Source: Chiloscyllium plagiosum
Lineage: Eukaryota
Length of the DNA: 64,000 nucleotides
Assembly (NCBI RefSeq): GCF_004010195.1
Contig: NC_057718.1
Coordinates: forward strand, 95,514,235 to 95,578,234
Direction of reading: 5' to 3'
The notes under the pieces were generated by a model that saw nothing but the letters and a program-made list of their open reading frames with translations, did no database searches and had not been told where the DNA came from. Of the stretch, positions 1,582-62,102 are shown in pieces; within the stretch, counting starts at the first letter, position 1, and each line of letters opens with the position of its first letter. The position numbers and the translations under genes are program-made.

Positions 1582-1920
1582 GGGCGGCACGGTGGCACAG
1601 CGCCTGAGACCCGGGTTCAATTCCCGCCTCAGGCGACTGACTGTGTGGAGTTTGCATGTTCTCCCCGTGTCTGCGTGGGTTTCCTCCGCAGTCCCTCCCA
1701 TTTATCTCTCCACCACCCCCCCGGGCTCCCAGTCTCATTCCTGATGAAGGGCTTTTGCCCGAAACATTGATTTTTCCTGCAGCTTGGATGCTGCCTGACC
1801 TGCTGTGCTTTTCCAGCACCACGCGTTTGACTCTAATCTCCAGCATCAGCAGTACTCACTTGCACTTTGAGGGATATGGGCCAGGTCCTGTAATGTAGAT
1901 TACACTGTAATGTAATCTAA
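1582..1920 (+). mobile_element. Chimeric V-SINE/HE1-like SINE with an internal PLE/CR1 segment
   Basis: SINE head gggcggcacggtggc..ggttcaattccc at 1582-1693 and tail acactgtaatgtaatctaa; middle replaced by a PLE terminal repeat plus CR1 piece. Confidence 0.7.
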
Positions 1921-3329
1921 AAAAAACTTCTGAAAGAAGTCTGAGCACATGAGCATTAAAGGCAAATCCAGTGTTACCCATCTTTGATTGCCCTTGACAA
2001 GCTGGTGAGCCACCAATTTATACTGCTGTTTTAAAAAGTCGAAGTCTCTGCTTCTTCAGCTACCTTAATACTAAGCACTTCAGTATAATTGCTTCAACAG
2101 GTTTAGATTTGAGTCATCCGTGACTTATTTTAAGGAGTACACAGATACAGATTAGATATTTTCTAATCAATCAGAGATCATATTGCTCACCACCTCTCTT
2201 AGGTGGGACTTGAACCTGGGCTCCTGGCACAGACGTAGGGACATCACCTCTGTGGCACAAGAAACCTTAACAGACAGAGACTATGATAGCGAGTTTTGAC
2301 AAGTTTTGTAGCTCGGGTTGAGGTTCTGAGTGTAAGTTTGCTTGCTGAGCTGGGAGGTTCATGTTCAGACATTTTGTCGCCCTACTAGTTAACATCATCA
2401 ATGAGCTTCTGGTGAAGCGCTCGTGTTATGTCCCACTTTCTATTTATGTGTTTAGGTTTCCTTGGGTTGATGATGAGATTTCCTGTTCTTTTTCTCAGCG
2501 GGTAGTAGATGGGGTCCAAGTCGGTGTTTTATTGATCGAGTTCCGGTTGGAATGCCATGCCTCTAAGAATTCTTGTGCGTGTCTCTGTTTGGCTTGTCCT
2601 AGGATGGATGTTTCCAGTCAAAGTGCTGTCCTTCCTCATCTGTATGTAATGATACTAGCGATAGTGGGTCATGTCTTTTTGTGGCTATTTGATGTTCATG
2701 TATCCTGGTGGCTAGTTTACTGCCTGTTTGTCCAATGTGGTGTTTGCTACAGTTCTTGCAAGGCATTTTGTAAATTACATTAATTTTGCTTGTTGTCTGT
2801 ATAGGGTCTATTAAGTTAATTAGCTGCTGTGTTTAGAATTTTGGTGAGTTTGTGGGCTACCATGATGCCAAAAGGTTTGAGTAGTCTGGCAGTCATTTCC
2901 GAGATGTCTTCAATGTAGGAGGAAAGTGGTTAGGGTTTCTGGACGTGTTTTGTCTGCTTGTTTGGGTTTGTTGCTGAGAAATCAGCAAACTGTGTTCATT
3001 GGGTGCCTGTTCTTTTTGAATACACTGTATAAGTGATTTTGCTCTGCTCTTCATAATTGTTCTGTGCTGCAGTGTCTGGTGGCTCGTTGAAATAATGTTC
3101 CAATGCAGCTTCGTTTGTGGGTGTTGGGATGATAGCTTCTGTAGTTCAGTATTTGGTCCGTGTGTGTTGTTTTCCTGTAGACGCTGGTTTGAAGTTCTCC
3201 ACTGGCTGTTAGCTCTACTGTGACATCCAGGAATGGCAATTTGTTGTTGTTTTCCTCCTGTTTTGAATTTTATGCCAGTAAGGATATTATTGATGGTCTT
3301 GAAGGTTTTCTCTAATTAGTTTCGTTTGG

Positions 3330-3622
3330 TGGGCGGCATGGTGGCACAGTGGTTAGCACCGCTGCCTCACAGTGTCAGAGACCCGGGTTCAATTCCCACC
3401 TCAGGCAACTGATTGTGTGGAGTCTGCGTGGGCTTTCTCCGGGTGCTCCGGTTTCCTCCCACAGTCCAAAGATGTGCAGATCAGGTGAATTGGCCTTGCT
3501 AAATTGCCCGTAGTGTTAGGTAAGGGGTAAATGTAGGTGGGTGGGTTACGCTTCAGCGGGTCGGTGTGGACTTGTTGGGCCGAAGGGCCTGTTCCACACT
3601 GTAATGTAATCTAATCTAATCT
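3330..3622 (+). mobile_element. V-SINE/HE1-like tRNA-derived SINE inserted in the PLE RT
   Basis: A box tggcacagtgg, B box ggttcaattccc, tail gggccgaagggcctgttccacactgta(aatct)n. Confidence 0.88.
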
Positions 3623-4195
3623 AGTGATGACAAAGGTGTCATCCACGTAGTGGACCCAAAGTTTGGATTGGATGGTTGGCAGAGTTGTTTGTTCAAGTCT
3701 CTGCATTCCTGCCTCTGCTAAGAACCCTGATGTCAGAGATTCATAGGTGTTCCACTGGTTTGTCTGTAGGTTTTGTTATTGAAAGTGAAGTGAGTGGTAA
3801 GGTATAGGTCCACTACCTTGACGATGTTGATGCTGATGAAGTTGGTGGTGTTTGATGTATGTGTCTTTGGTTCTTCTAATAGTGTCGTCAGTGTTTCTTC
3901 AGCCAGGTTGATGTTGATGAATGTGAACAGGGCTGTTATGTCAAAGGAGACCATTATTCATCCTCTTCTATCTTGGTGGCTTTGGTCTTCAGGAATTCTT
4001 GGATGGAGTGATGTGAGTCTTGTATTAAGTGTTTTCGTCTTTGGTGTAGTTCCTTGGCTAATCTGTACGTTGGTGTTCCAGGTAGTGAGAGTATGGGTCT
4101 GAGGGGACTGCTGGTATGTGAATTTTGGGTAATCCATTGAAGTGTGGCATGTTAGAAGCATATCCTGTTCACAAAAAAGGAGAAAACAACAACTA

Positions 4196-5087: not shown

Positions 5088-5287
5088 TACTACCCTCTGA
5101 GAAAAAAACAGGAAATGACGTCACCAACCCAAGGAAACCTAAGCACATAAATAGAAAGTGGGCCATAACACCAGTGCTTCATCCAGAAGCTCACTGATGT
5201 TACCTAGTATGGTGATGAAACATCTGAAAATGAACCTTCCAGTTCAGCGAGCAAACCTACATCCACAAACTATGTTCGTGAGTGACG

Positions 5288-5785: not shown

Positions 5786-8322
5786 AGTAGTATACAGCTT
5801 TGTTTTCCACGACTCAGCCCTTGCCTCCTCAATAGCTGTGGCATTGTCTCTCCATGTTCTGTTGATTGATGACCTTTGATTTTTCTTTCAATGTCTCAAA
5901 ACACCTCACCATTTATCCTCCTCTCTTTTCCAGTGGATGAGATTGATGGCATATTCCAAACTCTCTCACCTGATTGGTTTAGTCTCATATTATAATCTCT
6001 CTATATTTCAACCTGTGGAACTCTGCAGATTTTGTCTGTTCAAGTGAACAGTTCTTGCAAAAAGAGTCCAAAGGTCATAATTCTGACTAGCATTTCCTAG
6101 TTCAACAAATTCTAAACATGTTATAAGGTTTGTAACCACATTTTTTTCCCCCCAAGGCTTGATGCATATAGTTAGACCATTAACTAACCTCAAAACATAA
6201 TGATCTGATTCTTAAACTTTAACACATGTTATAAACCACAATGTGCTGTAATTGCTGTTTCAGCATTAGGTGTGAGGCAGACCATGATTAAGTTTGTCAG
6301 ATGCCTAACTGCTTTTGTCCTTATCACAGCTTGTTTAACCACATTATTTAACCACCGCACTTGCTTTAATCACATTATTTAACAACCACATCTTGACATT
6401 TTCTGGACAGGATTACCATCATTGTTTGCAACTTGGCCTTGGCATAAAGATAACAAAGATCATAAGATGATAAGTTCACCATAGAAAGACAACTAAACCC
6501 GAACAGTCCATTGCTAATATCCTTCCAGGCTTCCATGTAAACTTGTAAAAATGTCAATCACTTTAAGAACTATTCCATGAGCATTTACGTTGAAGAATTC
6601 CAGGAAACACCAGACATATCCTTATTTGTGAAGTTCCTTCCACATTTAGAACTTGCTTTGATTTGGTTGATGGTCAGACAAACGTTCATCAAGAAATTGT
6701 ACTTGCTGGTCCTGCAGTGTAAAACTAAAATTAAGTCAATGCTGCTACTTTTCTAACAGTTTATTTTAATTGAAGCCACAAGGGTGAGATCACAGTGTAG
6801 AGCACCATTAAAAATGTTGTGTGGGATGCTGATAACGTCCCTAAATACTAAAGGCCTCCATTTTGGATCAGTAATACAAGTGGCTGTTCACTTTCAGTGG
6901 ATAAGACTGCATGTTGAACGGATTGAATTGTCCATTCTCTCATCATCTGTGGAGAGAACTCTCAGTTAACGGTTTGGGTCTAGTGGCCCTTCCTCAGAAG
7001 CTGTTCTGAGGAAAGGTTGCTGGACCTGCAATGTTAACTCTGATTTCTTGCCACACATGCTGCCAGACCAACTGAGCTTTTCCAGTAATTTCTGTTTTTG
7101 CTTCTGATTTACAGCATCAGCAGTTCTTTCAGTCCTTTGTTTCATTACAGTTCTATTGGCATTTTTCTTTCTTAAGCAATGCTTTCAATACTTGTGGAAA
7201 TATAATAGAATTTTCTTCAGTTCTATGGTTTCTAACACTTAGCTTCTGGCTTTATTGAATTGGGACTAAAATAGTGGGCACTAGCTCATGTTTTTGGTTC
7301 ATTTTTGTGATTCTGTTATTTGTGGTGAAATCACCCAAGGCTGGAATTGAACCTGGGATCCTGGCACTGTGAGGCAGCAGTGCTAACCACTGAGCCACCA
7401 TGCCAGCCTAATGTATAATACCTAATATCATCTCCCCTAATATCTCTTTATATCTCTTAACATATTCTCTGTGGTTAGAATATGTTATTTACTGTTCATG
7501 ACAACAATCAAGTTGCACTTTTTGCATCCATTTGAAGGTTCTGTGTGGATTTGCATTTGTTCATTTTAAACACCTAATATTCTAACTTGCACCACGCATG
7601 CTTTACTTTCTATTTCTCATGCGAAGATGCTATTTATTATCCTTCTGATCAATTAATACTTCCAAATGTCTTGGCAAATTTACACCCTTTGTGGCTGTAT
7701 TGGTGAGGTTTTTCACTGGTAACACAGAAGCTGTTGTTCATTAAAATGTCTGCATCCCATTTATGGTAAATGTATAGTATTAGGCATATTGAAAGTTCTT
7801 TATGAATTTACAGTAAAGAGTAATATTTGAATTGTCACACCTTAAAGCTTCCTGACAAGACCAATTTTAATGACTAACTTTGTGACTGCAGTATAGCTTC
7901 AAATGTGCAGTAGTTTGTGATGCCATTTATTCACACATTTCCATTTTTACCTGAGTTCCTTTCAGTTTCTCTCTTGCGTATATTTATAATTTCTAAAGTT
8001 TATTTCAAAGTCCACCTCTTGCTTTTTCTCCATTTATTGCGAACTATTTTCTGGTTGGTAGGGGAAAAAAAATGAGTTAAAGTGTACAATATGTGGTTTA
8101 AAACTCTCTCCATTAAAATTGGAGAAGCCTGAAACATTAACTACACTGACCATCTTCCTGCTAAGGACAGAACAACATTTGGACTAAGAATAGAATATGT
8201 TTGTTTGCTCCTTCCAGGATGTGTGTATATAAGATTTTCTCTTCTTACTGTTGAATATGTCCGCATTCCCCTCTGTGACCCAAACCCCAGCTAATAGCCA
8301 TTTTATTTGTTCTGTTTTTCAG

Positions 8323-9369: not shown

Positions 9370-10889
9370 GTAAGGTGCATTTCTCAATTATTGGATCCCT
9401 TTTCCATGTAATGAGGGAAGTTTGATTCTTGCGGTTTTCTATGTACTGCGTGCAGGTCTAATTGTCACTCGTGAATGTAGCTTGTGAAGCGCTATTCCAA
9501 CTTACTTGCTTTAAGGGGTATCTTTTAAACTCCTGCATGTTTTGGAGCAGATGGAATATTTGAAAAACAGATTTGTTCTTCTAACAGCTTGCTATCACCT
9601 ACAAGTTGATAGTGAGAGTGCAGGCTGCCTGCTGGCACCAAAGGAAGTGTTTCCTAGCAAGCAGGTGAATTGTAGGGCTGGCTTATCAGTAAGGTGTTGC
9701 AGGTTGTGAGGATGGAAATTAGACAACAGTTTTCAGAGTAGGTAATCTGCAGCAGCTCATCCAATGATGCTTAAAGATAACATGCAAATCAAATTCCATT
9801 GATGCCCTAGGTTATTGAATTGCAATAATTGTGAGCTTCTGTCTGAAACCTCAGCAATGTAACTACAGTGAGCAGTCAAAATGGTGGCTGGCAGGGTTCT
9901 AGTGAAAAGAAGATTAGTTATTATAAAAACTTCTTGTGCCTTATTCCTGCTTAGCAATTATGGCTAATATTCTGACCTGAATTTTGGTGAATGAAGGAAT
10001 CTAGTGATCTGAGTGTTATTTGTTTTATATCCAAGTGGAATCTTATTAGTATTTGAGACAGGTCTTTTCAGTTGCTGATTCTGAGTTGAGCATTTGGTGG
10101 AGCTTAGGAATGAATTATTTATCTTGGATTGACAGCAAAATTTGACCCATTTACCATCCTCCCAATTCTTTGGAGTGACCAGTGTTCCTTTCCTGATGTT
10201 GTGTGTCAGGACAGTTACTTGTAAGGGAAAATAAGATCTTCGTGGAATTGTTGAAATGTTGTAACAGACCTTTAACTCTATCAGAACTATCAGACTCTAT
10301 CGGACTGCCAGTATTTTTGCTTGTTAATGATGGTGCAGTATAAAGTCAAGTGTAGCTAGTACTGTGCACAAGATGTAATAAAACAGTAACACTGCGTGGG
10401 GAAGAAAGCTAGAGTTTTCACAATTTATTGCTAGTATACTGTTTTCTTGGGAGCTTAGACATCTTACCGCAGAGAGGATTTAATGATGTTAGTCATAAGT
10501 AATTTCTCTATGTATCATAACAGCAAATAATACTCAACAGTGTTTGCATTCATTCCCAGATAGGTTAGTAGGTAGAGATTATTTTAACTTTCTTGTTTAG
10601 TATCCTCCAGTTCTGGTGTGACAATATTTCTTTGAAGATTTAAACTGATCACATTTACAGCTCATTCTATAAGATATGTAGTTATATGAAGGACATCAAA
10701 ATGTGAGAAACATTAAATCCATTCAAACATCTTGACATATTTAGACGATCATTAAATCGTGACAAACAATCAGTTAGTTAGATTGACTAATATAGATTAA
10801 GTGTTTGCTTGTGGAAGGTGAATGTTTTGATTTTACAAATCCAGATTTACCTTACCGCTTAAAAATTTCTCAAACCACGTTGCTCAAAT

Positions 10890-11825
10890 TCATGTTCCAT
10901 CCCGGCATTCAAAAATCATCCATTGCCATTTCTGACACCTCCAGCAGGATGCCACCATAAAACACATCCTCCCCACCTATGCTTAGTCAGCATTCCACCA
11001 AGGACTGTTCCTTCTGTGACATTGAGTCATTTTCTCCTTCACTCCTAACACTCCCTCACCCTTCAATGGCACCTTCCCACGCAATCGCAGAAGGTGTAAC
11101 ATTTGCCCATTCATCCCTCCCTCCCTCACTGTCCAAGGCCTCAAACGTACCTTCCAGGTGAAACAATGTATTGCCTATACTCCTTTTAATGTAATCTTTG
11201 GTATTCATTGCTCAAAATGCAGTCTGTTTCAAATTGATGAGTCCAAACAGAGATTGGCTGACTGCTTTTGGGAACACCTGTGCTTTTGTCTGTAGGAATG
11301 ACCTTGACCTTCCATTTGCTAGCCATTTCAATAAACCACTGTGCTCCTAGGCTAACATTTCTGTATTGGACCTGCAACAATGGTCCAACAAAACTCAGTG
11401 CAAGCTAGAGGAACAGCACCTCGTTTAGGCATCTTACAGCCTTTAGGTATTATTGTTGAATTCCATAATTTTAGAGAATGACCTCTATGTGCTTGATTTT
11501 TGTTACGCCCTGTGCACATGCACAAAAATGCGTGTGCACACTTGCTGCTGTAACTTTGCTTTCAGCAGAATTGACCCATTTTCTCCTTTTCACACCTTTG
11601 TTTATGCACTATCTCCCCCTTCATCACCATTAGCAGTCTCTCTGTTTTTGGCTGTGAACCACATCGCAATTGTTCCACTTGTTTCTTCTCTGTCCACAAC
11701 ATAAAACAGTTTTCCAACCCTCTCACATCTGAAGAGGAGTCATATCAGACTTAGCGTTAAATCTGTTTCTCTCTCTACAGATGCTGCTTGACCTGTAGAA
11801 TTTCTCCAGCACTTTGTGTTGTTTT
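10890..11825 (+). mobile_element. Old Penelope-like element 3' fragment
   Basis: Decayed GIY-YIG-region similarity to 1050-1460 and terminal tctgaaga...gatgctgcttgacctg motif. Confidence 0.65.
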
Positions 11826-12068
11826 TAGATTAGATTAGATTCCCTACAGTGTGGCCCAACAAGTCCACACTGACCCTCCGAAGAGTAACCCACCAGACTC
11901 ATTTCCCTCTGACTAACGCACCTAACACTATGGATATTTTAGCATGGCCAATTCACCTGACCTGCACATCTTTGGACTGTGGGAGGAAACCCACGCAGAC
12001 ACGAGAATGTGCAAACTCCACACAGACAGTCGCCCAAGGCTGGAATTGAACCTGGGACCCTGGTGCTG
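11826..12068 (-). mobile_element. V-SINE/HE1-like SINE
   Basis: Reverse complement of the SINE consensus seen at 3330; (agatt)n tail. Confidence 0.85.
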
Positions 12069-49460: not shown

Positions 49461-49581
49461 AAGGCTCTTGTGGTGCAGTGGTGGTGCCCCTACTTTTGAG
49501 GCTGGAGACCTTTGTTCAGGTTCCACCTTCTCAAGAGGCATGTAATTACATCTCTAAACAGGTTGGTTAGAAAATATCTTA
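49461..49581 (+). mobile_element. Short (about 120 bp) tRNA-derived SINE
   Basis: 11-bp TSD acacactcaga; A-box tggtgcagtgg; related copy on - at about 2155-2265. Confidence 0.7.
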
Positions 49582-50044
49582 ACACACTCAGATTGTTGGA
49601 CAGTCACCACATAGAGGTCCCTACTTTCCAGCAGGATACCAAGACTGCACTATATCAAAGCAAGGTTTAATGAATAGGTGACACTGCCCTCCCTACTTGG
49701 GCCACTGGTGATGAGCATCATCATGCCGGTCAGAGATTTATCTCTGGATATAAAGACTGTTTATAAATTATTAAGAACCTGCATTCTGGCCCTAATCAGC
49801 AGACCTCTTACAGAGTAGGCCTTATATTCGATTTTTAAAACATACTCCTATGTCATTCAGACCCCACTTCGATCACTTGTTGGCCTAGAAACAGAATATT
49901 AGAGGTAAAGGGACCATTTTTAACTTTGATTCGGAGATTTCTGAGATGAATGTATCTATTTTACTCAGTCACCTTTCTATCATTGTGCAAAAGATGACCT
50001 TAAAATGGTGGACATGGAGCTGGTATTCTATCAACATCAACGTT

Positions 50045-50362
50045 TAGATTAGATTCCCTACAGTGTGGAAACAGGCCCTTTGGCCCAACAAATCCACACC
50101 GACCCTCCGAAGAGCAACCCACCCATACCCATTCCCCTGCATTTACCCCTGACTAATGCACCTAACACTACAGGCAATTTAGCATGGCCAATTCACCTAA
50201 CCTACATGTCTTTGGATTATGGGTGGAAACCGAAGCACCTGGAGGAAACCCACGCAGACACAGGGAGAATGTGCAAACTCCACACAGACAGTTGCCTGAG
50301 GTGGGAATTGAACTTGGGTCCCTGGCGCTGTGAGGCAGCAGTGCTGACCACCGAGCCACCGT
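50045..50362 (-). mobile_element. V-SINE/HE1-like SINE
   Basis: Reverse-complement SINE consensus. Confidence 0.85.
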
Positions 50363-50712
50363 ATCTCTCCTAGAAGTAAGGATTGACCTCCTAGCCATTG
50401 TTGCTGACCATCTATCTCATTCAGGTTTTTGTTCCTCTTCATTGTGTTTTCCTACATAATCGCAGGTTCTGCTTTTTCGAAGTACTCCAGTTTCTATGAG
50501 GTAGGATAATACTGTCTGGACTTCATTGTCAAGTTAAGCAAACACACATGAACCAAACAGAGAGCAGCATGGCAACTTTAGTGATCTAGAAAATTTATAG
50601 AAGCATTATATTTTCAGTTACCTTAATTCATTCGATACTCCCAGTTTTCAGAGAGTGCATTTTGACCCCAAGATATCAGATCGTGTCTATTTTGAATAAA
50701 ATATCATAATAA

Positions 50713-51015
50713 GGGCGGCATGGTGGTTCAGTGGTTAGCACTGCTGCCTCACAGCATTAGGGACCCGGGTTCGATTCCAGCCTTGGGCGACTGTCTGTGT
50801 GGAGTTTGCACATTCTGCCCGTGTCTGCGTGGGTTTCCTCTGGGTGCTCCGGTCCAAAGATGTGCAGATCAGGTGAATTGGCCATGCTAAATTCCCTGTC
50901 GTGTTAGGTACATTAGTCAGAGGAAAATGGGTCTGGGTGGGTTACTCTTCAGAGGGTTGGTGTGGACTGGTTGGGCTGAAGGATCTGTTTCCACACTGTA
51001 GAGAATCTAATCTAA
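50713..51015 (+). mobile_element. V-SINE/HE1-like SINE
   Basis: SINE consensus; forms an inverted pair with 50045-50362. Confidence 0.85.
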
Positions 51016-51163
51016 AAAAAATAAACTACAACTGAGCAAGGTTTGTACCTATCCATCAAAAATATTTAGATGTTATGCAAGTGATTGTGAGAAGACACCT
51101 CCATTTAAAACAAAAACAGTTGAACAGGTTATTAAAATTATACAAAATAATGAGACTTCTTAC

Positions 51164-51295
51164 CAAAATTTTGTCAATTTTTCCACCTTCAAGTGTCACC
51201 TCCAGACTGGCAAGGGCAGCTTCCACCTCATCTTCATCTTGCTCATTAGTGAAGTCTTGTGGTTCCGACAATTGTGATAGCTTGCTTATATGATA
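51164..51295 (-). CDS. FERMT1: FERMT1 exon 8
   Basis: gtttcAG / GTAAGA; 132 bp; [44 protein letters not shown]. Confidence 0.96.
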
Positions 51296-51339
51296 CTGAA
51301 ACAATTTTTTAAACATTTAAGATGTGATGTTTACCAAAC

Positions 51340-51765
51340 TGATCATAGTTAAGTGTGTTTTTTTTTTGGAAAGGACTCCACTAAGGTATCTAAAGAAAGA
51401 CACACTAGCATTGTACACAATTCAGAGAAGGTTCACAAGGGTGGTACCACATAAGGAGAGACTGCTTTATGAGGAAAGGTTGAGTAGGATGGATATGTAC
51501 TCGTTGGAATTTAGAAGAATGACAGACAAACTTGTTGAAAAATGCAGAACTCTCAGGGGACTTGATAGGATAGATGTGGAAAGGTTGTTTCCCATTGAGA
51601 GACATTTTAGGATCGAGGGGCATAATCTCAGAATAAGGGACTGCACATTTAAGAGAGAGGTGAGGAGGACTTGCTTCTGTGAGGGTAGTGAATCTGTGGA
51701 ATTCTTTACAACAGAGAGCTGTCGAAGATGTGTTGTTGCATTAATCCAAGGCTGTTATCCCTTTT
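51340..51765 (+). mobile_element. Old CR1-like LINE 3' fragment
   Basis: IQRRFTRVVP..LYEERLSRMDMYSLEFRRM. Confidence 0.75.
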
Positions 51766-52184
51766 AAAAAAAAACTGTCAAAACAGTGCTCATGTGAAAT
51801 TGTATGAATGAATGAACAGGAACCTGTATCAATGAATATAGCAAGCTGGTAAAGATAACCTAGAACACAATATCTCACAATGAATAAAAGTTTCTTTCTG
51901 TATCAAGTGTGTATAAATGAAGGCTCTTTTTATAAACTTATTTTTGTCACCTCCGTTTGGCTCCTGACATCAGCCCCACCAGACAATATTGAGTGTATAG
52001 CAACGGAGATGGCATGAGGGATGAGAGGAGGTAGGGAATGAACGAGGGCTGTGAAGTGGCATGAATTTGGGTGAGAGAGTGCCTAATAGCTTTTAACAAA
52101 ACTGGGTCAAAATCTCAAGAACCTTTCTCAGCATTCTCACCTTCATGGCCATCTCTGAACTACTGCACTACCTCTGCAGGTAGC

Positions 52185-52470
52185 AGGCTCCTTCCAGCTC
52201 AGCACCATCCTCATGACCTGTCCTATCTGCCTATCTTTCTTTCCACCTATCCACTCCACCCTCCTCTCTGACCTATCACCTTCAGCCCCAACCCCATCCA
52301 CCTACTGTACTCTTTGATACCTTCTCCCCAGCCCCATGCCCTCCCATTTATCTCTCCACCCCAGAGGCTCCCTGCCTTCATTACTGTTGATGGGCTTTTG
52401 CCCGAAATGTCGATTTTCTTGCTCCTCAGATGCTGCCTGATCTGTTGTGCTTTTCCAACACCACTCTTAT
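52185..52470 (+). mobile_element. PLE 3' terminal repeat fragment
   Basis: Pyrimidine-rich tail then ctgttgatgggcttttgcccgaaatgtcg..gatgctgcctga, as at 1693-1865. Confidence 0.75.
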
Positions 52471-52999
52471 CTGGACAAAATTGAACCATGCCAACTCCAA
52501 GCATGACCAACCTACACCCCTCCCCAGAATGAAAATAATGCAGAGGTGGGGTTACTGCCAAGGAGACGGTTTTGCTCGATCAACTTGAGATTCCCCCTCA
52601 CCCTGTGGTGCAAATCTAGCCCATTAGCTCCACAGACACTGCCTGAGCGATTGAGTATTTCCAGAATCCTCTTGTATTTCTTTAATTCTTCATGGTTATT
52701 TCTGTTTTCACTGGCAGCATCATATCAAAATTCAGCCACCATGTCCTTTCAGCATTTTCTGATTATTGCTCTTCATTTTTTAATGAATTGCATCAGCAAT
52801 GAATGCATAAGGATTGAAAATCCAAGACAATTGAAGATTTTTTTTCTAATTTAGAATATGAGCTGAGAATGCCAGATGTGATCGAAGTATGTTCTGCCGG
52901 AGACCTGTATGTTATCTAGACGTCTGTCGGGACATGTTCTTCCCCCCTTGTTGAAACAGGTTTTTGTAGCAACAGTTGGCTTTAAACAATTACATTTAC

Positions 53000-53107
53000 C
53001 TGCAGTGCTGCAAATATTAACATTTCTTCCTCAGTGCAATCAATTTCCTCCAGCAGAATTGCCCACCGTGCTTGCTCATACAGCTGGTTTATCCGGACTG
53101 CATCATA
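53000..53107 (-). CDS. FERMT1: FERMT1 exon 7
   Basis: acgcAG / GTAAAT; 108 bp; [36 protein letters not shown], the kindlin-1 sequence. Confidence 0.97.
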
Positions 53108-53688
53108 CTGCGTGTAAGAGAGAGAGACGTCACTAAGGGTGTAATACAGACACCACTTTTAGTGCACAATGATATTCTGTTACAGAGGAAAGAGAAGTAC
53201 TACAGGGTTAGGTAAAGCTATGTGCCACTGCTGTATTAATCACGTCAACTCCAGCATAGACTATCTGCATGGACTATCTGCCTTATTCTGAAAAGGCAGT
53301 AATGGGATAGAGAATGGAGAATAAAATGTACAACACCCACTTCTCTTCCCAAAGCAATAAGGATAGGCTCTGCAATTAGGCCATGGGTTACTACCATACA
53401 AATACTTCACACATGCTTCTGAAATTCTTTTCTCCATTATTACAATGGTGTTATAAATCCATTTAAAATAATTAATAGCTCAACTAAAATATGGAAATTT
53501 CAGACAAATTAATTAAATTTTTGCATAACAGTGCTGCATGGAATATTTTAAGGTAATGGCATTATGGGCTTTATCCATGGAAGTTTGTGAACCTCTTCAT
53601 AAATTTGTGCTTGTAGTTTTGCAGCAAGTTTGGTGTTTTTGTTGTAATACAAAAATACCTTAGTTAGGAGAATCACTTGAATATATAT

Positions 53689-53886
53689 CTCACAACACCA
53701 GGTTATGCTGTAATCAACTTTTGCTATAAATTCTGTGCCTTACAATTGTGTCCTCCACAACCACCTGATGAAGGAGCACCGCTCCGAAAGCTCGTGTGCT
53801 TCCAATTAAACCTGTTGGACTATAACCTGGTGTTGTGTGATTTTTAACTTTGTACACCCCAGTCCAACACCGAAATCTCCAAATCC
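53689..53886 (+). mobile_element. Short PLE-derived element with partial inverted end
   Basis: 11-bp TSD tgaatatatat (53678-88, 53887-97); cacaacaccaggttat / ataacctggtgttgtg inverted repeat. Confidence 0.8.
53762..53796 (+). ncRNA. Minimal type I hammerhead ribozyme motif (PLE-associated)
   Basis: CAC-CTGATGA-A-GGAGC(acc)GCTCC-GAA-AGCT-C-GTG: helix I CAC/GTG, helix II 5 bp, palindromic helix III AGCT, predicted cut after C53793. Confidence 0.75.
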
Positions 53887-54546
53887 TGAATATATATAAA
53901 TGTTTTCCCCTTGTACTACAGACTGCATGCAGCAGTCTCTTGCTGTGGCAGCCTCATCCTGGGTGGGTGGTCTTGGCTTGACATGGTGGTCTCCAGGTTT
54001 GACAGTCTTGTCCCAGCATCAACGCCTTCTTCAGCAGCACTTTCCAGGTGTCCCAGTGGCCCAGCATGGTGATCCCGTCCAGTCCCAGTGCGGAGGTATC
54101 ATCCTGGTGTGTAGCATGGAGGTCTCGTCCTGTTGCGGAGGTCCTGTATTCCAGTCTGGAGCAGCAGTATCTCATTGGTGACAGCCTTGACCTGGAGGGG
54201 CAGTCTCCAGATTTGATTGTTTTGTCCAAGCGTGGAGGTCTTGTAGGTGTGGACGTCAGATTCAGCTGCGGCTTCCAGGTATTTCAGCGCTTGTTGTCTT
54301 AATCGACTTTCTCCGAAATGAAATTAATTTCAGGTGAACTCTGCCTTACTTTTTTCTCCTTATCTATGTCATTAATACAGGCGCTGTAGTATGACAACTT
54401 AGAAAACTTTTCACTTTTATTTTTTAAAAATACACATGACAATCTATTCTGTTCGAATAGTATGCCCCCATTTGCCTCAACTACTGTGTCTCTTCCCAGT
54501 ACTGTGGTGGGATGCTCAAAAGATTATTATGACTTGTGTGTCTTAC

Positions 54547-54649
54547 TTTTGGGTTCAGATCAAAGAAGCTGTAGTACTTGTAACGTAACAGCAGCTTATC
54601 TTCCTTCTGGATGCCTTGTTCCATCAGTGAACGTGATGAATCTAGCCAT
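54547..54649 (-). CDS. FERMT1: FERMT1 exon 6
   Basis: tctgcAG / GTAAGA; 103 bp; [34 protein letters not shown]. Confidence 0.96.
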
Positions 54650-55018
54650 CTGCAGAAATTGTGCAATGAAAGAAACTGTAAATAAATGATGAAAGATCCA
54701 GAGGTGGAATCTTTGCTGTTTGCCTTTGTATTATTTCACATTTACTGCATTAAAGCAACCCACATAGTCAACCTTTGCTCTGTTTGGCTTAACCGATTAT
54801 CTACTAAAAATCAACCATTGTACTTTACAATAAACGTACCATAAACTATTAAGCTACATTCGAAAAGTTGCAACAAGGCACATTAACCACAATATTTCAT
54901 GGAATTCCAACTTACATTTTAACAGTTTATTATTTCTGTCACATATTGTCTTCAATTCAATTCTAGTTATAATTCTAAGGGTATTTTTGAATGAAAAGTG
55001 AGTGTCATCTTTCACATC

Positions 55019-58000
55019 TGTTAGGGACCAGGCCAGACACCCTCAAAACATTTCAGGAAAGTAGCCCAGATCCTTTCTTTGCTGGTTGTTTTAAGGTATA
55101 CTGCGGATATTCCAGGAGTGATGCAGTTGGTCAAACCACATAGTTTTAAACAAAACAGAATTTATTTACAAGATTACCAAATGAAACACAAACAAGACGG
55201 CTCAAATTAATTCAGCAGGAGGATGGGAACCTAAACTGTAGTTCCAGTGTCCAGGAAGTTGAGAGTAGTGAAGTCAGAAATAAGGCATCAAAGGTCACAA
55301 GAGCACACTGGCAAGCAGGAAAGTGGTTTGAAGTGTGTCTACTTCAACGCCAGGAGCATCTGGAATAAGGTGGGTGAGCTTGCACCATGGGTTGGTAGCT
55401 GAGACTTTGATGTTGTGGCCATTTCAGAGACATGGATAGAGCAGAGACAGGAATGGTTGTTGCAGTTTCTGGGATTTAGATGTTTCCGTAAGAACAGAGA
55501 AGGTGGTAAAAGAGGGGGAGGTGTGGCATTGTTAGTCAAGGACAGTATTACGGTGGCAGGAAGAACATTTGAGAACTCATCTACTGAGGTAATATGGGCT
55601 GAGGTTAGAAACAGGAAAGGAAAGGTCACCTTGTTGGGAGTTTTCGACAGGTCTCCGAATAGTTCCAGAGATACAGAGGAAAGGATTGCAGAGATAATCC
55701 TGGATAGGAGCGAGTGTGACCAGGTAGTTATAGGGAACTTTAACTTTCCAAATATTGACTGAAAATAGTATAGTTAGAGTACTTTAGATGGATCAGTTTT
55801 TGTCGAATGCGTGCAGGAGAGTTTCCTAACACACTATGTTGAGAGGCCAACAAGGAGCAAGGGCCTGTTGGATTTGGTACTGGGTAATGAACCCGGCCAG
55901 GTGTTAGATTTGTGATGGTGACCACAATTTGGTTATGTTTACTTTACCAATGGGCAAGAGCTACAGCTGGGGGGGGGAAAGGCAATTACGATGCAATTAG
56001 ACAAGATTCAGGATGCATAGGATGGGGAAAGAAACTGCAGGGGATGGGCACAATTGAAATATGGAGCTTATTCAAGGAACAGCTACTGCGTGTCCTTGAT
56101 AAGTATGTACCTGTCAGGCAGGGAGCAAGTGGTCGAGCGGGGGAGCCATGGTTTACAAAAGAAGTCAAATCTCTTGTCAAGAGCAAGAAGGAGGCTTACG
56201 TTAGGATGAGACGTGAAGGTCTCAGGGTGCTTGAGAGTTACAAGTTAGCCAGGAAAAACCTAAAGAGAAAGCTAAGAAGAGCCAGGAGGGGACGTGAGAA
56301 GTTGTTGGTGGATAGGATCAAGGAAAACACAAAGGCTTGCTATAGGTATATCAGGAAGAAAAGAATGACAAGAGTAAGATTAGGGCCAGTCAAGGACTGT
56401 AGTGGGAAGTTGTGCATGGAATCCGACGAGATAGGAGAAGCACTAAATGAATATTTTTCGTCAGTATTCACACTGGAAAAAGACAATGTCGTCGAGGAGA
56501 ATACTGATATTCAGGCTATTAGACTAGATGGGATCGAGGTTCACAAGGAGGAGGTGTTAGCAATTCTGGAAAGTGTGAAATAGATAAATCCCCTTTAGCC
56601 AGATGGTATTTATCTTAGGATTCTCTGGGAAGCCAGGGAGGAGATTGCAGAGCCTTTGGCTTTAATCTTTATGTCATTATTGTCTACAAAAATAGTGCCA
56701 GAAGACTGGAGGATAGCAAATGTTGTTCCCTTGTTCAAGAAGGGGAGTAGAGACAACCCTGGTAATTATAGACCAGTGAGTCTTTCTTCGGTTGTGGGTA
56801 AAGTGTTGAAAAAGGTTATAAGAGATAGGATTTATAATCAACTGCAAAGGAATAAGTTGGAATAGTCAACACTGTTTTGCGAAGGGTAGGCCATGGCTCA
56901 CAAACCTTATTGAGTTCTTTGAGAAGGTGACCAAACAGGTGGATGAGGGTAAAGCGGTTTATGTGTTGTACATGGATTTCAGTAAGGTGTTTGATAAGGT
57001 TCCACACAGTAGGCTACTGCACAAAACACGAAGGCACGGGATTGAGGGTGATTTCGGGGTTTAGATCAGAAATTGGCTAGCTGAAAGAAGACAGATGGTG
57101 ATGGTTGATGGGAAACGTTCATCCTGGTGTTCAGCTACTAGTGGTGTACTGCAAGTATCTGTTTTGGAGCCACTGCTGTTTGTCATTTTTATAAATGACC
57201 TGGATGAGGGCATAGAAGGATGGGTTTGTAAATTTGCAGAAGACACGAAGGTCGATGGATTTGTGGATAGTGCTGAAGCATGTTGTAGGTTACAGAGGGA
57301 CATAGATAAGCTGCAGGGCTAGGCTGAGAGGTGGCAAATGGGGTTTAATGCGGAAAAGTGTGAAGTCATTCACTTTGGTAGGAGCAACAAGAATAAAGAG
57401 TACTGGGCTAATGGTTAGATTCTTGGTTGTGTAGCTGAGCAGAGAGATCTAGGTGTCCAGGTACATAGATCCTTGAAAGTTACCTCCCAGGTTGATAGGG
57501 TTGTTAAGAAGGCATACAGTGTGTTAGCTTTTATTGGTAGAGAGATTGATTTTCAGAGTCATGCGATCATGCTGCAGCAGTACAAAACTCTGGTAAGGCT
57601 ACACTTGGAGTATTGTGTACAGTTCTGGTCACCGCATTATACAAAGGACGTGGAAGCTTTGATAAGGGGTCAGAAGTGATTTACCAGGATGTTGCCTGAA
57701 TAGTGTAGAATTGATGGGCTTCACAGATTGGTTCCACAGGTTGGTGCAACATAGAGGACTGAAGGGCCTGTACTGCGCTGTAATGTTCTAACAGAATACC
57801 AAATAACTTAACCTTGTTCCATGTTAGCTGTTTCTTGGATCAGCAGCCTCAAACTGCCTGACTGCTCTCAGTGAATAGTCAGACTGTCAAATCAAACCAA
57901 ACCAGAGAAAAGATGAGCTGGGAGTATTAGTCACTCCCCTTTCTTTGTAGAAGTTTTTTTTTTAAATAAGTTGAAAGCCTTTTTCCTGAGACAGTATCTG

Positions 58001-58123
58001 TTAACTAAAATCAAACTGGCCCTAAAACCCTTGAAACCCAACATTCAGAACCAGTGTTGTTATAACCTCCTGAAAAAGAAATCAAGGGCAACATAATCGT
58101 GTTAAAGGAGCAGCATCATCACA
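55019..58123 (-). mobile_element. Solo LTR (TG...CA) split by a CR1 insertion
   Basis: 4-bp TSD catc (55015-18, 58124-27); AATAAA on minus near 55161; halves 55019-55197 and 57791-58123. Confidence 0.7.
55198..57790 (+). mobile_element. CR1-like LINE, near-complete but disrupted ORF2 (EN + RT)
   Basis: YFNARSI.NK..AISETW..REGGKRGGGVALLVKD..GNFNFPNID; DWRIANVVPLFKKGSRDNPGNYRPVSL; LLFVIFINDLD..KFAEDTKV; multiple stops. Confidence 0.92.
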
Positions 58124-59434
58124 CATCAGTATTCCTGTGACTAATTGAGACGAAATTTATTACAATATGTCCATATATAATGACCGAGCATTGTTAGCTG
58201 TGTTCTGGAGGGCTGCTTTAGAGAAAAATTGGACTAAGAGTTACCCATATTCCTGGCACTTGCCGATATGCCCTGACCAGATAGATTCCAGGAAACATAC
58301 ATTTTAATGTGCGCTGGGAACATTGAGCGTAGGAAAGTGTGGCTTCTCCTGGAAGGACTATTGATTAGATTTGAGTGGAAGCTGTTTGCTGGGTGCAAGA
58401 ATATTATATAGAATATGCAGTACTGAAACAATCAGTCCACGCTAGCATTAATGCTCCACTTGAATTCCACACCACCCCATTCTGACCAGTTCAACTTCAG
58501 TGACATTAACTTCTATTCCTTTTTCCCTGATACATATATCTACCCTTGTTTTGAATGCATCACTGTATTCACCTCAATCACACTGTGAAGAGATTACTAA
58601 GCACCACATTGAAAGCAGAGGTGATACCAAATGAGGAGCAATAGACGGAAGGAGGGGGTAAGGGTCACAAGCGCAGTGGCAGGGCTCGCATGTACGTATG
58701 TTAGACAAGATACAAACAGAGTTGCATTGACAAAATTAACAAGCAGTTTATGAACTTACTTGAGAATCTTCAGTGCACCTTAGAATGCTGAAAAAGTGCT
58801 ATTTGTATGTATTCAGACATACGTAAAGGCATGCATGAAATTTGGTATGGTTTGGAACAACCTTTTGCTTCTGAGACCCTCCTCCCAAGATATAAAACTT
58901 TCACAGACCCCTACATACAGGAATGTTTACTGTATAAAAAAATCAGTATAAGCCCAGCCAGCAAAGCTCACTTACTCTTAGATGAATCTCAAAAAAGCAA
59001 TATTAGATAGGGATAATATTATTATTATCGGGGTCAATCACTCACTCTTTTCTCTGGAATTCAGATCTTTTGTCTATGTTTAGAACAAGACTGTGAAGAA
59101 GTCTGGAGCCGCGTGGCTCGTGTGGAACCCAAAATGAGCATCGGTGAGCAGGCTATTGCTAAGTATTTGTTCCATGATTGCACAGCCAGTGGCACCTTCC
59201 CATCAGTCAGTAGATTAATGCGGTGATAATCAGCCAGATTGGATTTGGCTTGCTTTTCAGGGACAGGGGGTACTGGGCAATTTTTCCCATGGCTGGCTAT
59301 TTGTCAGTATTGGAGCTGTAAAGGAATAGGTTGACTCAGGGTGGAGCTGGTACTTGAGCACATGAGTTCGGTGGGGCTGCTGAGGTATTACCAGGACCCA
59401 CAACTGTGCAGTGCCTTCAGCTGTTTCTTCATAT

Positions 59435-59708
59435 CACAGAATCCCTACCAGTGCAGGTAGAAGCCTTTCAGTCCATTGAGTCAGCATCAACCCTTTGAAA
59501 AGCATCCCACTCAGTCCCACTGTAAATCCACTGATCCACCTAACCTGCACATCTTTGGATTTTGAAACTGAAGTACCTGGTGCAAACTCCACACAGACCC
59601 TTGGAGAACATGCAAACTCCACGCAGACAGTAGCCCAAGGCTGGAATTGAACTTGGATCCTTGGCACTGTGAGGCGGTAAAGTGAACCGCTGTGTCACCA
59701 TGCTGCCC
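59435..59708 (-). mobile_element. V-SINE/HE1-like SINE
   Basis: Reverse-complement SINE consensus. Confidence 0.8.
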
Positions 59709-59990
59709 TATACATCATGTGGAGCGAATGAAGATATGAATCTTTTAAACTACTTAAACATCTGATTGATGGGTTGAATGGCTGCTTTATGTGCCAGAAC
59801 TTTTCTGTAGTTAAATGGTGTATCACCTGTTAAGCTTCTAACTCAAGGGACTATAAGCCTTTGCAAGCTGACCTCATAATTTGACACCATTATCATGGCA
59901 AGAGGGTTATATATAATAAACTTGTTCCTTTGCATCACTGCAATTTAAATAGTAGGTAATTAGTAAATAAATCATGTCAAGCAATCCTAC

Positions 59991-60204
59991 CCAGCATTCA
60001 GCTCTGCTTTGTCCACTTGATTCTGTGGCCTGTACATTTTGGCCAGTGCCTCTGGTGTAAGGATTGGCCGGCTGACAGCCAGAATGTTACAGTTCCGTTC
60101 GGCGAGAGGACTATCACTGAACCATGTAATTGTAGAAGAGACAGGTGTTCCATTGACAGGGTCGTATATGGGAGTCATCGTCTTGCTGTATAGACCAGGA
60201 CTTG
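59991..60204 (-). CDS. FERMT1: FERMT1 exon 5 (upstream exons lie beyond the window end)
   Basis: gcacAG / GTAGGA; 214 bp; [46 protein letters not shown]...DKAELNA(G). Confidence 0.96.
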
Positions 60205-61703
60205 CTGTGCAACGAGACAAGTGACAAAATGTTTATATCATTGACACTGAAGCACTCTGATATTTATTAGAAGTGAGCAAATACAAAATGAAGCAATAAC
60301 CTTTGTGCTGATGTTTGGTGTCTTCACAGGATAGAGGTCTAAATCTGGTTCGTTACTTTAATTTGGACCGATGACAGATGTGCATTGCAGGAAGTTATAA
60401 AGACTGGCTACACCATAATTAACTAACTACAAAGCAGAAACGACATAATATGTAAATATTTCACTCGGTTATTGTGTTAATGGTATCATAAAGGCAAGAT
60501 GTCCTCTGAATGCTTTTTCTTGTAAAGTTGGTAAACATCCATTTTAGAATTTCACTATAAATAGTAAACACCCTTCAATATTGGTGGAGGGGATTTCCAC
60601 CCACAGTCCCAATATATGTGCAGCAAAACTTGAGAAATTGCCTTGCTCTTCCTATTATAACATACAATAAAATGCAAGAAATCTGAAGACAAATCTTAAG
60701 AACACAATAGATTACAACAAACAAACAGTATTGGTGCTGTTCCACATTAACAATTGTTATGATCATTAAAACAAACATTACCATCGTGTTCTTAATATAA
60801 TTAGTCAGTAACCATGGCAATACCAAGCGCATGTACACAACATTTACTTTTGCAGTCACGCCTCAATCATGCTCTGGCAAAGTAGAAACTAGGTTTTATG
60901 GAAATTCTAGACTTAGTCATTGAATTTAAATGCCACCAGCTGCTGTGGTCAGATTTGAACCCATGCCCCTTGAGCACTGGCCTGTGCCTCTGAATTATTA
61001 GTTTGACTTTTCCTTTATCATTGTGAGAGATATTGGCATTGCTGGGCAAGGTTGGCATTGTTTGCCCATCTCCAGTTGCTCTTGAGCTGTCTCTCGGCCA
61101 TTCCAGAGAACAATTTTTAAAAAAGTCAGAAACATTCCCGAGGACCTGGAGTCACATCAGGTAAGGGTGGTGGATTCCCTTCTCTGAAGGGCATTACGGA
61201 ATCAAATGCTTTTCAAGACAAGCCAATGATAGTTCCGCCATGAAACGGATCCCAGATTTATTAATTGACTTTAAATTCCACCAGTGTCCTCATTAGTTTT
61301 AAGGATTTCCTTCTCTAAAAATGAGTGAACCAGATGGATATTTACAACAATAGACAATGGTTCCTTTGTCACCATGAGATATGTTTTAATTTCGGATTTC
61401 ATTGACTCAAATTTCACCATTTGTTGTAGTGGGATTCAAATCCATGTCCCTAGTAGGCTCTGGATTACTACTCCCATGATATTACAACTAAATTGACACC
61501 TCCCCTTACCAAGTTATCATGCTGTTCCTGTGTGCTTCCAGTGGCTAAAGTGGCTAAAGTAAATATCTGACAGAGCTCTTCATTCTGACAGCAGGGCGAA
61601 TAAAGCATGGTCCAGGGTGAGAAGGAATTGTACTTAATCAAACACCTCCAATTTGAGGTTTTCAAGTATATCACATTGAGTTATCTGACTGGAGTGTAGA
61701 TCT

Positions 61704-62102
61704 TTGAGGAGAAAGTGAGGACTGCAGATGCTGGAGATCAGAGCTGAAAATGTGTTGCTGGAAAAACGCAGCAGGTCAGGCAGCATCCAAGGAACAGGAC
61801 TTGGAAGTCAGTTTGACTTCCAAACTGACAATAAGTAACATAATAGAATCATTTAAAGTTTATTGGTGACCTGATGATCAATTTTTTTTTCTATCAGTTG
61901 GAGATTTTGCTTTTCCCTTAAGTAATCTGCAGAAACAGGTCAAACAAGTCACTTTGAAATAGCACCTACGAACTAGCCAAGAATGTAAATGTGTGACACC
62001 AAGGAACATTCCTGAAGAAGGGCTTATGCCCGAAACGTCGATTCTCCTGCTCCTTGGATGCTGCCTGACCTGCTGCGCTTTTCCAGCAACACATTTTCAG
62101 CC
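61704..62102. mobile_element. Fold-back PLE-derived element carrying captured flanking DNA
   Basis: 15-bp TSD ctggagtgtagatct (61689-703, 62103-117); same arms as 47638-47883; hammerhead motif at 62008-62043. Confidence 0.88.

Follow-up and report, generated by a model that had tools for sequence, protein, structure and literature searches.

Small self-cutting RNA motifs are scattered across a 64,000-nucleotide stretch of Chiloscyllium plagiosum DNA (the window); judged by sequence comparison they are real, and they are the known terminal signature of Penelope-like elements (PLEs). The best explanation, to which we give a probability of roughly three in four, is that they are minimal type I hammerheads in the pseudo-LTR of Neptune-/Poseidon-type PLEs, and that most of the copies are dead products of full elements, truncated on the 5' side. 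The window comes from a shark and contains most of FERMT1 on its minus strand; repeat copies past 24.6 kb are intronic in this gene and the rest lie beside it (Table 1). Pattern scans gave no matches in viral contigs and none in metagenome contigs, as expected since the DNA is from a shark, and no RNA run with 51100-55000 was found among the 24 sequencing runs listed. A strand bias against the FERMT1 sense strand was considered and rejected (12 plus versus 7 minus pieces; intact copies 4 versus 1, p=0.375).

Table 1 Terminal-repeat copies, PLE coding remnants and host gene in the window
Positions	Strand	Feature	Basis
976..1398	+	GIY-YIG endonuclease end of Neptune-type PLE ORF, remnant	P0001/P0002 in tblastn, identity 50-63%, E at most 1e-26
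1368..1449	+	family A repeat body joined directly to ORF end, hammerhead missing	profile E 5e-18; sequence
1712..1853	+	end of family A 3' UTR, hammerhead 1741-1768 (intact core, 4-bp helix II, 2-bp helix I), tailed repeat	profile, copy scoring
2290..4168	-	broken 5'-truncated Poseidon-type PLE (RT and endonuclease remnants), SINE-interrupted	tblastn with P0170-P0173, best E 1e-75
5093..5266	+	family D end, inverted, tail-less; decayed hammerhead 5194-5224	84% identity to 2495-2331, opposite strand
6943..7125	.	head-to-head family B stubs, both decayed; cores 6997(-) and 7006(+), 8 nt apart	profile
10840..11830	+	5'-truncated Neptune-type PLE, family B: endonuclease remnant 10840-11443, 3' UTR, decayed hammerhead 11729, repeat body	tblastn, profile
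18401..18483	-	decayed family B stub	profile E 5e-12
18591..18688	+	hammerhead-bearing stub (18597-18624; intact core, helix II of 4-5 bp that opens with A-U, 4-bp helix I)	descriptor, profile, copy scoring
19408..19479	-	decayed family B stub	profile E 3e-9
24601..60208	-	FERMT1 (kindlin-1), host gene	11 coding exons matched
27696..27811	.	head-to-head family C pair: 27756(-) is decayed; 27778-27806(+) has an intact core, a 4-bp helix II that opens with G-U, AGCT and a 2-bp helix I	copy scoring
37722..37912	.	head-to-head family B pair, decayed	profile
38152..38350	.	two family B copies head to head, minus at 38174-38288 and plus at 38287-38340; flanked by 9-bp repeat (borderline)	profile, copy scoring
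39149..39269	+	decayed family B copy	profile
39667..39829	.	head-to-head pair, both truncated within motif; plus piece E 0.17 only	profile
41721..41792	+	family B stub, GAAA decayed to AAAA	profile, copy scoring
42024..42141	-	family A stub with tail; core CTGTTGA and GGAA	profile, copy scoring
42293..42406	+	decayed family B copy	profile
47624..47897	.	young family A insertion, 14-bp target-site duplication	flank, repeat comparison
52200..52470	+	family A 3' UTR, decayed hammerhead 52384 (CTGTTGA), repeat body	profile
52627..52673	+	short repeat-body fragment without hammerhead	profile E 5e-4
53678..53897	.	family C insertion, 11-bp target-site duplication	descriptor, flank comparison, copy scoring
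61689..62117	.	young family A insertion, 15-bp target-site duplication	flank, repeat comparison

A strict descriptor of the motif (helix II of at least 3 bp plus a palindrome, G-U allowed) matches the window six times, against a mean of 0.32 and a maximum of 3 in 200 local dinucleotide shuffles, none of which reaches 6. The loosest descriptor gives 10 matches against 0.82, again with 0 of 200 shuffles reaching 10. CTGANGA by itself is weak, since its 59 occurrences fall inside the shuffle range (39 +/- 7, maximum 65). Repeats amplify any motif they carry, so the shuffle test overstates independence, and an Rfam search of the window at E<=10 gave 11 matches, none to a hammerhead family; both points would suit a chance hairpin in an abundant repeat, unrelated to hammerheads. 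Such an origin is nevertheless scarcely credible, because the core is common to three non-homologous repeat types (A/B, C and D) with different stems, and its layout is that of the published consensus, with family A close to the Acropora Neptune motif (PMC4209133 Fig. S3).

The preliminary description of this DNA had placed CTGANGA, an extra A, helix II and GAAA..UH at 1741, 18597, 27778, 47794, 47762(-), 53765 and 62012; these are present with the stems it quoted, except that helix I is 0-2 bp at 1741, 47794, 47762(-), 62012 and 27778. Decayed versions were likewise found at 41727, 42133(-), 52384, 5194-5224(+) and 2401-2368(-), but 38294, which had been counted as intact, keeps its core boxes and has lost helix II (0 bp). 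All core boxes (CUGANGA, GAAA, UH) are kept in 8 of 18 scored copies, the core plus a helix II of at least 4 bp in 7, and a true palindrome besides in 4 (two decayed rows, 19472m and 27756m, were anchored about 1 base off and failed the core test either way). The single copy with core, helix II, palindrome and a 3-bp helix I is 53765. Among the eight intact-core copies, helix I has at least 3 bp in three, 2 bp in three and 0-1 bp in two. The earlier density of one motif per ~6 kb drops to one per 9 kb for the seven copies with core and helix II; terminal-repeat pieces number about 30, or one per 2 kb. The extra base after CTGANGA is A in 8/8 intact-core copies, as had been stated, and T in the decayed family D copy 2401(-). 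Across the 18 copies, the G10.1-C11.1 pair is G-C in 12, A-U in 2, G-U in 2 and unpaired in 2. The palindrome, claimed for every listed copy, is Watson-Crick in half of the intact-core set (47794, 62012, 53765 and 27778, with ACGT or AGCT). The other four have ACAT (1741) or ATGT (18597, 38294, 47762(-)), the two forms into which ACGT would be expected to turn by CpG decay.

These copies had been taken for unrelated families. One profile, however, detects 23 copies of a Neptune-type terminal repeat at E<1e-3 (best E 0.65 in the reversed window), and 1741, 18597, 38294, 41727, 42133(-), 47762(-), 47794, 52384 and 62012 have a common downstream body under it. These nine sites of a single superfamily include six of the seven lead positions of the preliminary description; only family C (53765/27778) and family D (5194/2401) are separate from the A/B superfamily. 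Three of the four lineages (A, B and D) are linked within the window to PLE coding or 3' UTR remnants, and for family C no ORF link was found there. ORF or UTR runs collinearly into the hammerhead at 10840-11830, 52200-52470 and 4168-2290(-), and an ORF is joined to the repeat body at 976-1449. Further, 52200-52265 matches the read-through tail of PLE protein P0002 (73%, E 9e-5), 22 nt upstream of 1741 match the 52384 copy exactly, and the 3' repeat of the 2290-4168(-) element carries a ~40-nt tail besides its decayed hammerhead (2401-2368). The identification as PLE minimal hammerheads is borne out by these links to RT/GIY-YIG remnants. The stretch 2290-5266 was also considered as a near-full element with two direct repeats and rejected, as the element lacks its 5' part and its second repeat has the opposite orientation. 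The CX2-5CXXC linker between RT and endonuclease, present in Neptune and absent in Poseidon (PMC8557442), is found in P0001-P0005, relatives of the A/B-linked ORFs, and is absent in P0170-P0173, relatives of D; on this marker the A/B-linked ORFs would be Neptune and those of D Poseidon. The endonuclease assignment is made through relatives with RVT_1 and weak GIY-YIG matches, the window's own endonuclease fragment giving no match in Pfam.

Helix covariation, a further earlier claim, is seen between subfamilies of one homologous repeat but not within a subfamily. An alignment of 16 family A/B rows was used, two of them visibly misaligned, with family C rows left out because they were misplaced in a first alignment. 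Two-sided, compensatory changes number 16 against 7.7 +/- 2.4, a count reached in 0/500 shuffles of a kind that ignores relatedness, and the hammerhead structure outscores all slid controls. The number of pairs with a two-sided change is not significant (5 versus 3.9 expected, 146/500 shuffles). The first helix I pair covaries C-G/U-A between subfamilies. Genomic copies give no significant sign of extra core conservation (12/150 core mismatches versus 75/666 in the body, p=0.30) in a small test that used a majority consensus and included the misaligned rows.

An inverted adjacent copy, a one-sided tail and a target-site duplication occur together at 47624-47897, 53678-53897 and 61689-62117. 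In the first, an inverted copy with a ~34-nt tail (core 47762-47735, minus) is followed by a 27-bp duplicated junction and a tail-less direct copy (hammerhead 47794-47821). In the second, an 18-nt inverted piece precedes a direct copy with a ~45-nt tail. The hammerhead of this direct copy (53765-53793) is the best in the window, with a 5-bp helix II, AGCT, a 3-bp helix I and a cut predicted after 53793. The third consists of a tailed inverted copy without a hammerhead (61706-61799), an inverted 142 bp of nearby host DNA (61812-61953), a 52-nt filler and a tail-less direct copy with hammerhead 62012-62039. Duplications of this length (15, 14 and 11 bp, in 3/15 insertions tested) compare with a null maximum of 9 bp, seen in 3/300; none above 6 bp is present at 11/15. 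Close neighbours are head-to-head in 10/12, which 0/20,000 strand shuffles reach, although two of the ten (18401/18591 and 42024/42293, different subfamilies) may be chance neighbours. A tandem search of the window found only the 27-bp duplication at 47757-47811, and copies are never tandem dimers.

A route to these structures can be proposed. In PLEs of these types the hammerhead sits in the pseudo-LTR, just behind the RT-GIY-YIG ORF. The element protein would nick both target strands and cDNA would be primed at two internal start sites separated by the length of one tail, both steps being taken from work on the Anolis element PAc (PMC11167929). Synthesis of either cDNA would often end within a few bases of the hammerhead core, on its upstream side, and the two would then be joined head to head. 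The template would be uncleaved RNA, because most copies retain the part upstream of the cut site. Selection on the ribozyme in source elements would lead to the compensatory changes between subfamilies, and there the ribozyme would probably process tandem transcripts slowly, helped by dimer formation or by protein. No function is indicated for the inserted stubs, and most copies are decayed.

In 6/9 same-family pairs the inversion junction lies at most ~30 nt from the core of both copies (core spacing 8, 21 and 31 nt at 6997/7006, 27756/27778 and 47762/47794), by the core's front edge rather than the cut site, and 62012 and 42133(-) match UTR-bearing copies upstream over only ~5 nt, by eye. 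Such sharp boundaries would suit true non-autonomous families, SINE- or retrozyme-like, whose 100-130 nt masters start at the hammerhead, are self-transcribed and borrow the PLE protein. Repeat sequences alone are enough for trans mobilisation in Adineta (PMC3846280), and retrozymes are derived from PLE repeats by Li et al. 2026 (bioRxiv 10.64898/2026.07.22.740005). We regard such masters as unlikely, since the same lineages hold copies with 3' UTR or ORF upstream (1741, 52384, 11729, 2401) and the window has no tandem array of repeat units, so the copies fall outside the definition of a retrozyme. The centres of the two youngest paired insertions, moreover, differ while their 3' ends are identical. 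One lineage's copies range from bare stubs to pieces with 3' UTR or coding sequence, and this range, together with the shared 3' ends and different centres, fits 5'-truncated products of full elements. Of the earlier proposal of several ribozyme-bearing PLE derivatives, the PLE minimal hammerheads hold; separate non-autonomous families are its less likely part. Against truncation it can be said that the source elements are known here only by fragments, and that a sharp 5' boundary near the core also fits a short non-autonomous master.

A more tentative idea, rather unlikely at present, is that in these sharks the hammerhead region is where the copied RNA starts, or a site of RT stopping or template switching, with cleavage dispensable. 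The 5' repeat of a transcript, or a short transcript that begins just ahead of helix I, would then be copied alone into large numbers of 100-130 nt head-to-head stubs, and some could be non-autonomous masters even with a dead core. This is hinted at by the front-edge junctions, by the fact that only 3/23 Neptune-type copies (1368, 52627, 61799) start after the cut site, and by the core change CTGTTGA common to the unlinked family A copies 42133 and 52384 (n=2, which could be chance).

Truncated products of full elements remain our preferred reading. Cleavage as a dimer in place is unlikely from the arrangement of the copies, because 5,971 bp separate even the closest intact copies on one strand, and close pairs are inverted and fold into long hairpins. 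Co-option of some copies as active ribozymes that process FERMT1 or an antisense transcript is very improbable, even for 53765, where every feature is present and the computed fold contains helices I and II. Of the five copies within FERMT1 that keep core plus helix II, four lie antisense to it, the orientation expected if self-cutting were avoided, but this bias is not significant (p=0.375) and an antisense copy could not cut the pre-mRNA. Folding z-scores of four motifs (-0.2 to -1.6) are not significant either, no tandem partner lies in the window, and a monomer of this class showed no cleavage in vitro (PMC4209133). Young copies would be intact simply through youth, as with 47794 and 62012 (98% identity).

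Dispersed, covarying minimal hammerheads from truncated PLEs have been known across animals since 2014, when pseudo-LTRs of metazoan PLEs were described as carrying them (Cervera and de la Pena 2014, PMC4209133), so the value of the present case as a discovery is small. Some practical value remains: tail, inversion and target duplication are very clean in the young shark insertions, and a genome-wide 5'-end map of shark insertions could address the role of the PLE hammerhead and where the template RNA starts. A full-text literature search, with most subscription papers outside its scope, listed no paper titled for hammerheads in shark PLEs; among the species consulted in PMC4209133 there is no cartilaginous fish, and a text search of its supplement gave no shark, Callorhinchus or skate. 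Shared with the motifs described there are CUGANGA, one extra base, a G-C pair opening helix II, GAAA, palindromic 15.2-16.2, UH and, less uniformly here, a short helix I. Truncated PLEs account for the copies there too, which are mostly solo, with more than one covarying family in a genome and opposite-strand pairs 100-700 bp apart. According to the same paper, coelacanth and Xenopus have thousands of copies, the palindrome forms helix III only in the dimer, and self-cleavage is weak, as a dimer or with an extended helix III. Helix II has 4-5 bp in shark families A-C versus 7-8 bp in Schistosoma, and family A resembles D. virilis in having a helix I of just 2 bp.

Metazoan non-LTR retrozymes (Cervera and de la Pena 2020, PMC7229834; Li et al. 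2026) are likewise non-coding, hammerhead-bearing and related to PLE repeats, and are present in the one chondrichthyan genome sampled by Li et al. They are, however, same-strand tandem repeats with at least two complete hammerheads, of which the shark window has none; abundant circular RNA is a further mark of retrozymes. In PAc, a Poseidon element of Anolis (Frangieh et al. 2024, PMC11167929), the tail is explained by two internal RT start sites, and both strands are cut and extended. Its hammerhead is described as protein-assisted and dispensable for insertion in vitro, with no RNA reads ending at the cut site. The PAc ORF starts inside the hammerhead, whereas an ATG-initiated frame in the shark repeat body, considered as an ORF start, matched none of 152 PLE proteins (best E 1.9), and family B copies have it interrupted. 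Finally, endonuclease-bearing PLEs (Arkhipova et al. 2013, PMC3846280; Craig et al. 2021, PMC8557442) share with the shark copies an inverted 5'-truncated copy placed head-to-head, a 30-40 bp tail at one end, target duplications, solo repeats and unrelated DNA captured between repeats, an architecture also seen in PMC8557442 Fig. 2 and PMC4209133 Fig. S4A. The shark insertions differ in their longer target duplications (11-15 bp versus 8-10 bp) and in that both halves are often only the last 100-130 nt.

Each position singled out in the preliminary description carries CTGANGA or a decayed version of it, with the quoted stems present. Within these 64 kb, the scope of all measurements given here, a descriptor made up of the core, an optional extra base, a helix II of at least 3 bp, GAAA, the palindrome and UH matches six sites (18597, 27778, 47794, 53765 and 62012 on the plus strand and 47762 on the minus strand). 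The shuffled expectation is a mean of 0.32, and none of 200 local dinucleotide shuffles reached six; because repeat copies count as independent in this test, it establishes a motif above background and not six origins. All core boxes are kept in 8 of the 18 copies scored, each anchored on the core, and helix II is also kept in seven of these; the motif at 38294 retains the core boxes but has lost helix II. The 4-nt palindrome, described earlier as recurrent, is Watson-Crick in four of the seven, and only 53765 has a 3-bp helix I in addition; the tetramer is ACAT at 1741 and ATGT at 18597, 38294 and 47762. Rfam gave 11 weak matches in the window with no hammerhead among them, so the expectation that standard annotation would miss these motifs holds for that part. 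The core change CTGTTGA is common to two unlinked family A copies, 42133(-) and 52384(+), and may mark a source element whose core was inactive; the core at 19473(-) reads CTGTCGA.

The families had been thought unrelated, a view contradicted by a terminal-repeat profile built from 13 copies. This one profile recovers 1741, 18597, 38294, 41727, 42133, 47762, 47794, 52384 and 62012, which have in common a body of ~90 nt downstream of the motif. It matches 23 places at E<1e-3, plus three weaker ones, and the best E in the reversed window is 0.65. Repeat pieces number about 30, or one per 2 kb, and seven look intact. Family A copies have within the repeat body (62058-62104, for example) a frame that starts with ATG and stays open through the end of the tail; in family B it does not stay open. 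A search with this frame gave no protein match.

Repeat families and clear target-site duplications in the window
Feature	Positions	Character
Subfamily A		helix II 4 bp, GGGC/GCCC
Subfamily B		helix II 5 bp; helix I GTT/AAC
Single copy	18597	intermediate between subfamilies A and B
Family C	53765, 27778, 27756 and an 18-nt piece	separate
Family D	2401, 5194	separate
Target-site duplication	47624/47884	14 bp
Target-site duplication	61689/62103	15 bp
Target-site duplication	53678/53887	11 bp

Covariation was assessed on 16 A/B copies aligned by sequence alone. Pairing cells reach 77.8% against 72.2 +/- 1.7 in shuffles (0/500), two-sided changes number 16 against 7.7 +/- 2.4 (0/500), and the covariation score is 0.344 with slid controls at <=0.157; the number of pairs carrying a two-sided change (5 vs 3.9) is not significant. 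The visible covariation reported earlier is thus present, but the changes lie between subfamilies (C-G/U-A at II.4 and I.1, G-C/A-U at II.1 and II.2). None falls in helix II of subfamily A, where all four pairs are invariant in 6/6 copies, which argues that selection acted on the source elements. Family C contributes A-U at II.3 and an inner palindrome G-C. Among inserted copies, the core deviates from consensus at 12/150 non-CpG sites and the body at 75/666 (p=0.30), and extra core conservation was not detected in this small test.

The identification of these motifs as minimal hammerheads of PLEs is borne out by repeats joined to RT/GIY-YIG remnants for A, B and D. Positions 976-1398 match the GIY-YIG end of the shark RT-endonuclease proteins P0001 and P0002 (50-63%) and lead into the repeat body of a family A copy. 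A further stretch, 52200-52265, matches the read-through tail of P0002; the decayed motif at 52384 follows 120 nt downstream, and 22 nt of the sequence upstream of 52384 are present exactly in the 1741 copy. For family B, an endonuclease remnant (10840-11443) is followed by a UTR and then the motif at 11729. On the minus strand, a broken RT-endonuclease remnant (4168-2500) terminates in a family D repeat and matches its relatives P0170-P0173 in single-frame pieces, mostly at 60-86% identity. A CX2-5CXXC linker, named for Neptune in the accessible part of PMC8557442, is present in relatives of the A/B ORFs and absent in those of the D ORF; A and B are therefore classed as Neptune-type and D as Poseidon-type, from the linker pattern rather than a tree. 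For family C the window offers no coding link, and the putative assignment of this family to PLEs rests on motif and insertion anatomy. Repeat body and following bases are duplicated, at 1368-1490 and 1774-1890, and the duplicates are 404 bp apart. A LINE end and a SINE piece separate them, and the first is fused directly to the end of the ORF, lacking both UTR and hammerhead. Another Neptune-type endonuclease remnant, 21021-21547 (+), stops at a (CA)13 repeat (21567-21593), with neither terminal repeat nor hammerhead after it.

Judged from its sequence, the DNA is that of a shark. One exon, translated to 46 residues, matches fermitin family homolog 1 of cartilaginous fishes at 85-98%, and the retroelement fragments have their closest relatives among predicted proteins of Chiloscyllium and Stegostoma. 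FERMT1 (kindlin-1) occupies 24601-60208 on the minus strand, with 11 coding exons for residues 176-676 (tblastn) and its earlier exons past the window end. Numerous copies of one SINE, which we take to be of the shark HE1 type, occur at 3331-3620, 15100-15380, 62596-62880 and other places. CR1-like LINE ends are also numerous; there is an RT match at 44782-45150, an endonuclease match at 55403-55759, and an assembly gap of 198 N (~45150-45347) within a LINE fragment.

Ten of 12 neighbouring pieces <=250 bp apart are head-to-head, minus then plus, a number reached in 0/20,000 strand shuffles, and eight of these ten pairs have the same subfamily or family on both sides. A ninth same-family pair is the family D element, whose junction is interrupted by a 900-bp insert. 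This segment (4194-5092), single-copy in the window, has terminal inverted repeats of ~25-30 nt with TA on its flanks and presumably represents a Tc1/mariner-type non-autonomous DNA transposon. Target-site duplications, tested at 15 insertions against a null maximum of 9 bp (3/300), are clear in three, 9 bp in one and <=6 bp in 11. One copy extends 3' of its partner by ~34 nt in both young family A insertions, ~45 nt in C and ~40 nt in D. The two young insertions have repeats 97-98% identical and identical 3' ends, with unlike centres: the insertion that begins at 47624 has a 27-bp duplication there, and that at 61689-62117 has an inverted host segment of 142 bp and a filler of 52 nt. The unlike centres argue that the palindrome arises at insertion and is not inherited from a palindromic master. 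The host segment, 61812-61953, is an inverted, 97% identical copy of intron 62256-62399, ~140-280 bp downstream of the target site; the filler has no second copy in the window. Intron capture and filler look like template switching during integration.

For PAc, the Poseidon element of Anolis, the accessible part of PMC11167929 describes nicking and extension of both target strands, two internal reverse-transcription start sites bounding the tail, and normal insertion by hammerhead mutants from uncleaved RNA. On the best model the shark insertions formed likewise: both target strands would be nicked and extended, reverse transcription would begin at two internal sites with the tail as the stretch between them, and the template would be uncleaved RNA. 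Such a model explains the duplication, the inversion and the tail on one side only, and it agrees with the rarity of starts downstream of the cut site (3/23 Neptune-type copies) and with the junctions <=~30 nt from both cores in 6/9 same-family pairs. The frequent end of copying at the motif's front edge could reflect RNA that starts there, reverse transcription that stops or switches template, or short masters, each a possible source.

Ribozyme activity at the present genomic sites appears unlikely. Between intact copies on one strand the shortest distance is 5,971 bp, and those two have incompatible palindromes (ACGT and AGCT); within a single family it is 14.2 kb. Pairs that do lie close together are inverted, and 47638-47886 is predicted to form, on either strand, one hairpin of ~-200 kcal/mol in which both motifs are buried. 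Of the five intact copies in introns, four are antisense to FERMT1, a bias that is not significant. In the accessible part of PMC4209133 (Cervera and de la Pena 2014), a monomer motif of this class was uncleaved in vitro and dimers cleaved weakly, and in that of Li et al. 2026 (bioRxiv 10.64898/2026.07.22.740005), 8/9 Xenopus dimers were uncleaved.

The preliminary finding is real and rightly recognised, and its kind is already known: PMC4209133, as far as accessible, has the extra base, G-C pair, palindrome, solo copies, opposite-strand pairs and covarying families. No shark example was found in the accessible parts of its text and supplement, and a literature search found no title on hammerheads in shark PLEs; supplements of Li et al. 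2026, whose accessible part includes one chondrichthyan among genomes sampled for tandem retrozymes, may bear on shark families. Retrozymes are tandem units, whereas the window holds none, so the copies do not classify as retrozymes; they may possibly be distinct non-autonomous families. The inverted copy with a one-sided tail is the architecture described in PMC3846280 and PMC8557442 (Fig. 2), and Fig. S4A of PMC4209133 describes a truncated PLE whose second motif lies on the opposite strand. The Acropora Neptune motif in Fig. S3 of the same source closely resembles family A.
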